Positions 30,870 to 31,441 of a stretch of 31,450 bases of DNA are shown here, in pieces (position 1 is the stretch's first letter; every line of letters begins with the position of its first letter). Source of the DNA: an uncultured Gammaproteobacteria bacterium. GTDB taxonomy: Bacteria; Patescibacteriota; Microgenomatia; UBA10105; UBA927. The stretch covers positions 6,184 through 37,633 of the forward strand of contig CAYHFH010000001.1 of assembly GCA_964355865.1 (NCBI GenBank), read 5' to 3'. Made by a program: the position numbers and the translations under genes. The notes beneath the pieces are model-generated. The model searched no databases. It was given only the letters and a program-made list of their open reading frames with translations, and was not told the DNA's origin.

Positions 30870-31262
30870 TCAAAGGTTCTTCGCGTACTCTTCCCAACGA
30901 GAACGATCCCAAACTTCAAAATGATCTCCGGCACCGATGACCATAATTTCCCGCGATATGGACGCGTACTCCTTGAGCTGGGCAGGCAAAAGAATACGAC
31001 CAAGTTTATCTATCTCAGCTTTTTGCGCTCCGGCAAACATATAGCGCCGGATTTTTCTAGCCTTTTCATCCGTTACCGGTGTATCAAGGTGCTTGGCTGC
31101 TTCCCGCTCCCAACTTTCCCGGTCAAACCCGAATATGCATGGCTCAAATCCTTTGGCGAGTACCAATTCCCGCTCTTCTATCTCTTGCCGTATCTTTCTT
31201 GGAAGCGTTACGCGGCCCCGGTCATCTAAACTATGGTCGTATTCCCCAAGGAATAATTTCAT
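30870..31262 (-). CDS. mraZ: Transcriptional regulator MraZ
   Basis: FLGEYDHSLDDRGRVTLP and DKLGRILLP (two AbrB/MraZ repeats with DxxxR); first gene of the dcw cluster. Confidence 0.97.
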   Translation of the reverse strand: MKLFLGEYDHSLDDRGRVTLPRKIRQEIEERELVLAKGFEPCIFGFDRESWEREAAKHLDTPVTDEKARKIRRYMFAGAQKAEIDKLGRILLPAQLKEYASISREIMVIGAGDHFEVWDRSRWEEYAKNL

Positions 31263-31396
31263 GCCAGGTAGTGAAATTTCGACTGCAGCGAGCTATTAAT
31301 TGCGTGACTTTTTTGATAAAAAATCATCATCTCACCTCGCCCGCCAGGCGCTTTCATTGGAAATGAAAGCGGGTCGAAATTCTACTACCTGGCATG
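31260..31396. mobile_element. MITE/REPIN-like structured insertion at the mraZ start (24-bp inverted arms, duplicated CATG)
   Basis: CATGCCAGGTAGTGAAATTTCGAC (31260-31283) pairs with GTCGAAATTCTACTACCTGGCATG (31373-31396) at 22/24. Internal perfect 10-bp hairpin at 31349-31371. Mobility is inferred, not shown. Confidence 0.6.
31354..31395 (-). other. Putative leaderless uORF MPGSRISTRFHFQ (13 aa)
   Basis: ATG lies 6 nt after an extended -10; stop TGA at 31356-31354. Translation is unproven. Confidence 0.35.
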
Positions 31397-31441
31397 TCCA
31401 AAGTCTACCACTTCTTCCCATTTATATCCATACTCTCCCAT
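31388..31441 (-). promoter_or_regulatory. MraZ operator (five TGG boxes at 10-bp period plus a degenerate sixth) overlapping the dcw promoter
   Basis: Minus strand aTGGgagagt aTGGatataa aTGGgaagaa gTGGtagact tTGGacatgc cAGG. Promoter candidate: -35 TGGATA (31430-31425), 17 nt, -10 TG-G-TAGACT (31410-31402). Confidence 0.85.

Follow-up and report, generated by a model that had tools for sequence, protein, structure and literature searches.

The window analyzed here is a stretch of 31,450 nucleotides from a metagenome-assembled genome (MAG) of the Patescibacteriota (G000; 1.06 Mb in 147 contigs, 88% complete), and the subject of this report is the hairpin that encloses the start codon of its mraZ gene. 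The gene is intact (31262..30870, minus strand; 130 aa, Pfam MraZ at 5e-35) and is followed downstream by rsmH, ftsL and a gene for a penicillin-binding protein. Directly 5' of mraZ lie the arms of an inverted repeat (31396-31373 and 31283-31260, minus strand), 24 nt each with 89 nt between them, which pair at 22 of 24 positions (92% complementary; no such match arises in 100 shuffles); the minus-strand RNA is predicted to fold at -69 kcal/mol, against -40.6 +/- 4.2 for shuffled sequences (z -6.7). The outer stem holds two AUGs, that of mraZ and a second one at 31395-31393, which opens the 5' arm and a frame of 13 codons (MPGSRISTRFHFQ-stop; 31354..31395, minus strand, from reading the sequence), and the 15 nt ahead of the mraZ AUG contain no Shine-Dalgarno (SD) sequence. 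A first-pass annotation had pointed out the pairing arms, the 13-codon frame and the missing SD sequence, all of which hold, and had taken them for a translational switch: the mraZ AUG would be freed by a ribosome on the leaderless upstream open reading frame (uORF), tying the repressor of the division and cell wall (dcw) cluster to translation status.

The core of the structure is a discrete element of 129 bp (31264..31392, minus strand; CCAGG...CCTGG), which is missing from the matching site of the related genomes G003 and G002 and is flanked on both sides by CATG. The upstream CATG (31393..31396, minus strand) contains, at 31395-31393, the ATG at the original mraZ start position, the empty site reading ...TTTGGACATGAAATTATTCC; the downstream CATG (31260..31263, minus strand), placed by alignment, contains the present mraZ start at 31262-31260. 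In a three-way alignment of G000, G003 and G002, the latter two show a clean gap of 133 nt, and their empty site reads ...GGACATGAAA...; the junctions in G000 read GGA-CATG-(129 bp, CCAGG...CCTGG)-CATG-AAA, so that the core and the 4-bp CATG duplication together make up the 133 bp, which is also the insert length given in the first-pass annotation. The target-site duplication is thus seen directly against an empty site.

The mraZ locus was taken from 40 relatives, and the 260 nt ahead of each mraZ were inspected. The hairpin is missing in 23 of 23 family genomes, namely three congeners (G001, G002 and G003) and 20 others, which read ...(T)GGTAGACTTTGGAC ATG AAA... or close variants of it. Same-genus MraZ proteins are 88-98% identical, that of G003 98% with near-identical flanks; the mraZ copy is thus private to G000, a presence/absence polymorphism among close relatives. 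Because the hairpin is missing from all 23 relatives, the conservation and covariation at mraZ that an evolved switch had been expected to show are absent. We conclude with high confidence that the mraZ hairpin is a recent insertion of a non-autonomous element, of the MITE type (MITE, miniature inverted-repeat transposable element), exactly on the mraZ start codon. The AUG of the supposed uORF is the start codon that mraZ had originally, which stayed behind at the promoter, and the present mraZ AUG is its copy; the arrangement of hairpin and upstream AUG is a by-product of transposition and not a switch evolved for mraZ.

The insertion separates the gene from its native promoter. All 23 family genomes have an extended -10 (TG-N-TAGACT or a variant of it) whose end lies 6 nt ahead of the mraZ ATG; in the window it reads TGGTAGACT (31402..31410, minus strand), its hexamer being recovered by a promoter scan as well. 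With this fixed spacing, +1 falls on the first base of the original ATG, which would yield a leaderless mRNA; mraZ is thus probably leaderless across the family, and a transcript start at the upstream AUG, as assumed in the first-pass annotation, is likely. After insertion, the 5' arm would come first in the mraZ transcript; the start codon's upstream copy remains at the native, probably leaderless, +1, and its downstream copy heads mraZ at the foot of the stem. Farther upstream lie TGGGA/TGGA/TGGT boxes with a period of about 10 nt (31411..31450, minus strand), cut by the contig end and conserved in relatives, which look like MraZ operators as known from E. coli. The whole region (31397-31450, minus strand, and loci L068-L089 of the relatives), with a TTGACA, four of these boxes and the extended -10, is strikingly conserved in 23 genomes and suggests a leaderless promoter that would be autoregulated by MraZ.

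The copy at mraZ belongs to a family of repeats. G000 holds at least 18 copies of a long form (126-149 bp) and three of a short one (78-83 bp), their arms being paired genome-wide. The element ends (CCAGGTAGTRRA) are found, with their 9 outermost nt exact, in 14 of 41 relatives, with up to 37 pattern matches (in G001), and in three of 400 other genomes across the phylum, which belong to three other families. The comparisons below are based on 57 long copies, those of G000 and of about 390 kb of G001, which span 123-151 bp. The family has the hallmarks of a MITE, namely terminal inverted repeats (TIRs), a target duplication, small size without a transposase gene, many copies and polymorphism between genomes; no autonomous partner was found in six genomes, whose assemblies are incomplete.

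The long copies are start-codon-seated, and insertion duplicates the ATG. NATG followed by an open reading frame (ORF) stands at the 3' end of 57 of 57 long copies, and perfect direct repeats of 4-5 bp containing the ATG flank 46 of them (TATG in 33, TATGA in 8, CATG in 3, AATG and AATGA in one each). Where the duplication is TATGA, the TGA of the upstream gene is retained along with the ATG of the downstream one (ATGA overlaps, for example between rpsQ and rplN). By a rough gene call, no more than 12% of the ATGs outside genes are start codons, so that their occupation by 18 of 18 copies in G000 has a probability of about 1e-17. The genes behind the copies in G000 include, by Pfam match, those for L14 (with the profile aligned from residue 1), the primary sigma factor RpoD, YbaB, a CsoR-like repressor, AdoMet decarboxylase and a CBS protein; in the relatives, they include those for GroEL, SSB, L11 and FtsH. 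Leaderless-like or SD-led starts are no more frequent among the target genes than in the genome background; as to that background, an SD-like word stands 4-16 nt before the ATG in about 14% of the ORFs of at least 200 aa in G000, and a TANNNT at leaderless spacing in about 21%. The distance between the two ATGs of a copy is usually not a multiple of three.

The copies also have a fixed orientation. Non-orthologous copies with related interiors (scores 42-122) all point the same way relative to the gene, and no reversed pair rises above noise. The interiors are correspondingly asymmetric: GGAG occurs in the sense direction in 22 of 53 copies and antisense in 4, AAGGA in 20 and none, and CCTGG in 13 and one, with a peak of SD-like words about 52 nt before the AUG. 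Words resembling a -10 show no strand bias (44 against 49), and an element-borne promoter is doubtful, since the candidate match TAGACT-N17-TAGAAT includes a word of the arm that is oriented towards the gene in just half of the copies.

In all 57 copies, the stem measures exactly 20 bp, pairing stopping at position 21; at mraZ, it is extended to 24 bp by the palindromic CATG. Positions 1-9 are invariant, and positions 10-11 are always a G.T and an A.C, the two possible orders being about equally common; in the mraZ copy, the 5' arm (CCAGGTAGTAGAATTTCGAC, 31373..31392, minus strand) and the 3' arm (GTCGAAATTTCACTACCTGG, 31264..31283, minus strand, from the inverted-repeat search) form them in the order A.C, G.T. 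Positions 13, 14, 15, 19 and 20 covary, 98.9% of their pairs being canonical against 66.5% after shuffling. Between the arms, 77% of copies have a side hairpin next to the 5' arm and 72% have one next to the 3' arm (29% in shuffles), the sequences of these hairpins varying among copies in a compensatory manner. At mraZ, the first of these is a 10-bp stem with the loop TCC (31349..31371, minus strand; found both as an inverted repeat and in the fold), beside which the terminal pentamer CCTGG occurs a third time, internally (31344..31348, minus strand). Four other copies fold alike, with z of -5.4 to -6.7; GNRA-like loops appear in one subfamily alignment only. Neither the mraZ copy nor 13 others match a family of Rfam 15 (E up to 5-10).

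The arms are conserved well beyond what surrounds them. G000 and G001 have copies at eight common loci. In six of these eight pairs, all 40 arm bases agree (100% identity), while identity is 43-66% at third codon positions in the flanking genes and 59-98% in the interiors. As the arms are thus perfectly kept where synonymous sites are saturated, they must be held by selection, by conversion or by re-insertion. The upstream ATG and its frame show no such constraint: the ATG is lost in 7 of 57 copies, the older ones, and the length of the uORF ranges from 3 to 55 codons across the family.

Some of these older copies have an unusual flank. One at ybaB is common to three genomes of two genera (G000, G001 and G008). 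In G001 and G008 (L061/L042), and likewise in the groEL copy of G001 (L106), the 5' arm has an AAGGAG directly before it and the 3' arm has the ATG after it; in G000 (L007), the upstream ATG is replaced by a purine-rich GAAG, the 5' flank reading GTAAGAAG. The upstream ATG is gone in all of these ybaB and groEL copies, which look as though the hairpin had split a ribosome-binding site (RBS); at ybaB, the AUG lies immediately 3' of the helix and is unpaired.

As the copies sit on start codons in a single orientation, include essential genes among their targets and keep their arms conserved, the element must let the gene behind it be expressed. Co-transcribed with that gene, it would form the 20-bp helix and two side hairpins, a fold that would set upstream signals (the 5' end, an upstream stop codon or an SD sequence) beside the downstream AUG; ribosomes could then reach this AUG if the helix were opened from upstream, by coupling to an ORF within the element, or once the RNA has been processed. 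At mraZ, coupling has a candidate that was overlooked in the first-pass annotation, along with the membership of the structure in a repeat family. The SD-like word GAGGTGAG (31331..31338, minus strand, from reading the sequence) is followed directly by ATGATG (31330-31325), which opens a frame of about 22 codons, (M)MIFYQKSHAINSSLQSKFHYLA-stop (31259..31330, minus strand; listed as an ORF at 31259..31357); this frame crosses the 3' arm, and its TGA (31261-31259) overlaps the mraZ ATG as ATGA. An SD-led ORF whose UGA would overlap the AUG of the following gene has the classical arrangement for translational coupling, and we tentatively favor the view that mraZ might be expressed in this way, at a likelihood that nonetheless falls short of even.

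How far the insertion has simply damaged the gene has to be weighed against this. An AUG that stands behind a leader of 133 nt, within a 24-bp helix, might rarely be used, so that MraZ synthesis would be reduced or lost and the dcw operon derepressed or otherwise altered; such a knock-down was the fallback named in the first-pass annotation, and the young insertion would then be neutral or slightly deleterious. The insertion is very recent and private to G000, its CATG duplication gives a perfectly paired helix foot, tighter than in the usual TATG copies, and MraZ is dispensable in E. coli. However, a family that occupies the start codons of L14, RpoD, GroEL, SSB, L11 and FtsH does not in general block translation, the mraZ copy has the SD-led coupling ORF at its disposal, and the mraZ frame is intact, though there may have been too little time for decay; we therefore consider a crippled mraZ possible, but doubtful. 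It is unlikely that the helix would instead be opened, as a side effect, by a ribosome on the upstream AUG. It is also improbable, if conceivable, that RNase III or a similar or dedicated nuclease cuts the outer stem and leaves the AUG with a short leader or none, although a sequence-specific factor would fit both the nine invariant outer pairs with their invariant tandem of non-Watson-Crick pairs in 57 of 57 copies and the perfect conservation of the arms amid saturated synonymous sites. RNase III is encoded in G000 (rnc), and the early mRNAs of phage T7 and the Correia hairpins of Neisseria are processed in a comparable way; against this, the arms could be conserved for a transposase, or kept alike by re-insertion or gene conversion, and the structure matches no known RNA family.

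The original proposal, in which an evolved, mraZ-specific switch frees the AUG only by way of a ribosome on the leaderless uORF, is very improbable. What it described stands: the hairpin and the upstream AUG are there, and the geometry of the native promoter predicts a transcript that starts on this AUG. The tie of MraZ to translation status is what falls, as the hairpin is absent at mraZ in all the family genomes inspected, near-identical loci included, and as stem and upstream AUG are the TIRs and target duplication of a mobile element, found at dozens of unrelated genes. Moreover, the upstream AUG is base-paired in the very stem that it would have to open, and the family neither keeps this ATG in every copy nor constrains the length of the frame behind it. 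Yet less credible is an assembly artefact, a chimeric join induced by the repeat: the contig does end only 54 nt past the element, in a fragmented MAG, but both flanks are those of the mraZ locus, contiguous in the relatives, and a clean 4-bp duplication marks the junctions, like those of 46 other copies.

Several points weigh against the reading of the mraZ hairpin as a MITE-type insertion through which the gene may still be expressed. Among six genomes, no transposase and no longer element with these ends was found, the arms never lying more than about 240 nt apart, and DDE_Tnp_1 was not detected in G000, G001 or G005, which are rich in copies and incompletely assembled. No relative of the interior of the mraZ copy, and so no donor, turned up in G000, in the 40 relatives or in exact-word scans of two public collections of genome and metagenome contigs; a 23-nt match in G003 belongs to a lone hairpin. 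The population may be mixed at this locus, with alleles that carry the insert and others that lack it, the MAG being incomplete and the contig end near. An SD-led ORF running through the 3' arm is present in only about 13 of 57 copies, which rules out coupling of this kind as a family-wide feature and means that the one at mraZ may be there by chance. Finally, the transcription start, folding, processing and translation of the mraZ copy are all read from its sequence.

The candidates considered for a mobilizing enzyme do not fill this gap. ORFs of about 200-250 aa resembling Y1_Tnp, of the IS200/RAYT type (RAYT, REP-associated tyrosine transposase; REP, repetitive extragenic palindrome), number five in G000 (C16:8840-9166, C145, C104, C67 and C30) and 9-11 in G001 (10), G003, G005, G015 and G019; genomes rich in the element tend to have more of them, which is a correlation only, and element-free genomes have them too. 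Y1_Tnp was not adopted as the mover, both on this account and because transposition by HUH enzymes makes no target duplication. A GIY-YIG nuclease was set aside likewise: G000 has a single small gene of 87 aa (C58:1162-1425, L124) that is not flanked by element arms, and no longer form encoding GIY-YIG was found between CCAGGTAGT arms. A tRNA-like sequence and a GTCGCG...CGCGAC hairpin immediately precede this gene, which possibly encodes an Ssn-type nuclease with a hairpin repeat of its own (cf. PMC11893778); the Ssn/SRM motif described there does not fit the element arms. Eight arms that seemed unpaired, and were considered as ends of an autonomous element, proved to be ordinary small copies with one mismatch each. 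Ends that begin with CC and duplications of 4-5 bp suggest a possible likeness to the IS1380 family.

Among known repeats, the closest in overall build are the Correia elements (CREE/NEMIS) of Neisseria, MITEs of about 100-155 bp with TIRs of about 26 bp and a TA duplication, which serve as RNase III substrates. They are non-coding, lie in many copies near genes with which they are co-transcribed, form long hairpins in mRNA leaders and can affect expression. Correia elements also carry promoters and a site for integration host factor (IHF; PMC3184786). In contrast to their TA duplication, which is not tied to start codons or to one orientation, the element described here duplicates NATG or TATGA and is seated on start codons, and its interior is hypervariable with conserved hairpin positions; the two are set apart by their descriptions rather than by sequence comparison, and membership in the Correia family was rejected on the duplications (TATG, CATG, AATG or TATGA, not TA). 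REP2 of Neisseria and an inverted repeat (IR) of Borrelia plasmids lie immediately upstream of many ORFs and provide a promoter, an RBS and an ATG along with two internal stem-loops (PMC3184786). The element here resembles REP2 in that it lies directly upstream of an ORF and supplies its ATG in 57 of 57 copies; however, the REP2 and Borrelia repeats have no TIRs, target duplication or evidence of transposition, whereas here TIRs, duplication and empty site are all observed. A REP, or a pair of them (REPIN) mobilized by a RAYT, whose units are short palindromes with a GTAG tag and no target duplication, was likewise rejected: GTAG does occur in the arms, but an arm is not a palindrome in itself, and the element has a clear duplication.

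Tolerance of selfish repeats at seemingly forbidden positions is also seen in the Rickettsia palindromic elements (RPE), which are inserted in frame and translated within a host protein that still works; the long copies here differ in lying outside the ORF, at its first codon. Stable hairpins are looped out, letting signals on either side work jointly, in the split ribosome-binding sites of phage T4 genes 38/25, the ribosome shunt of cauliflower mosaic virus (CaMV), T4 gene 60 and the yeast mitochondrial byp elements, and in the last two, take-off and landing codons match. The duplicated AUGs of the element resemble such take-off and landing codons, a likeness in mode of action and not one of membership, as none of these systems is a transposon that seeks start codons. 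On this analogy, the family might be a transposon invisible to translation, which seeks out start sites, duplicates the start codon and whose helix, with its G.U and A.C pairs, would be read by a dedicated factor and would bring a leaderless 5' end, an upstream stop codon or an SD sequence up to the downstream AUG; ribosomes would either cross the foot of the helix or find it excised from the RNA. We hold this idea as a whole to be unlikely; if true, the family would represent ribosome shunting or programmed bypass in a bacterial form that operates genome-wide, essential genes included.

For mraZ itself, the outcome is sobering: in place of an evolved switch there is a young insertion, which may have silenced the dcw repressor in this one lineage or may have left it active. 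The main interest lies in the compatibility of a family of start-codon hairpins with the translation of dozens of genes, some of them essential. The bacteria that carry it would routinely start translation at an AUG immediately behind a 20-bp helix, and usually paired into it, which bears on initiation in the Candidate Phyla Radiation (CPR). The restriction to start codons implies a target choice that recognizes start sites, which to our knowledge is not known for DDE or HUH transposons, and the conservation of the arms amid saturated synonymous sites points to a factor of the host or of the element. In the literature searched, we found no published description of MITEs restricted to start codons.

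Other members of the family depart from the common form. The three short copies of G000 (C1:4345-4422, 1.8 kb before the window; C9:3530-3611; C139:2580-2662) have the same arms, are not on start codons and carry other duplications (CAGG, TATAA); two sit within long open frames and may undergo translation. At L053:13080-13357 of G001, two elements stand in tandem with one shared TATG, the second having landed on the ATG duplicated by the first, and in G005, copies are nested, element inside element (L122 and L123). G005 also holds a subfamily of 210-240 bp (L118-L120), with arms ...GAACTTCAGGCAAA and no internal ORF of 50 aa or more. Lastly, a lone hairpin in G003 (C25, L127:~1500-1525; CGCTTTCATTTCCGATGAAAGCG) lies outside any element and is nearly identical to the first side hairpin of the mraZ copy.

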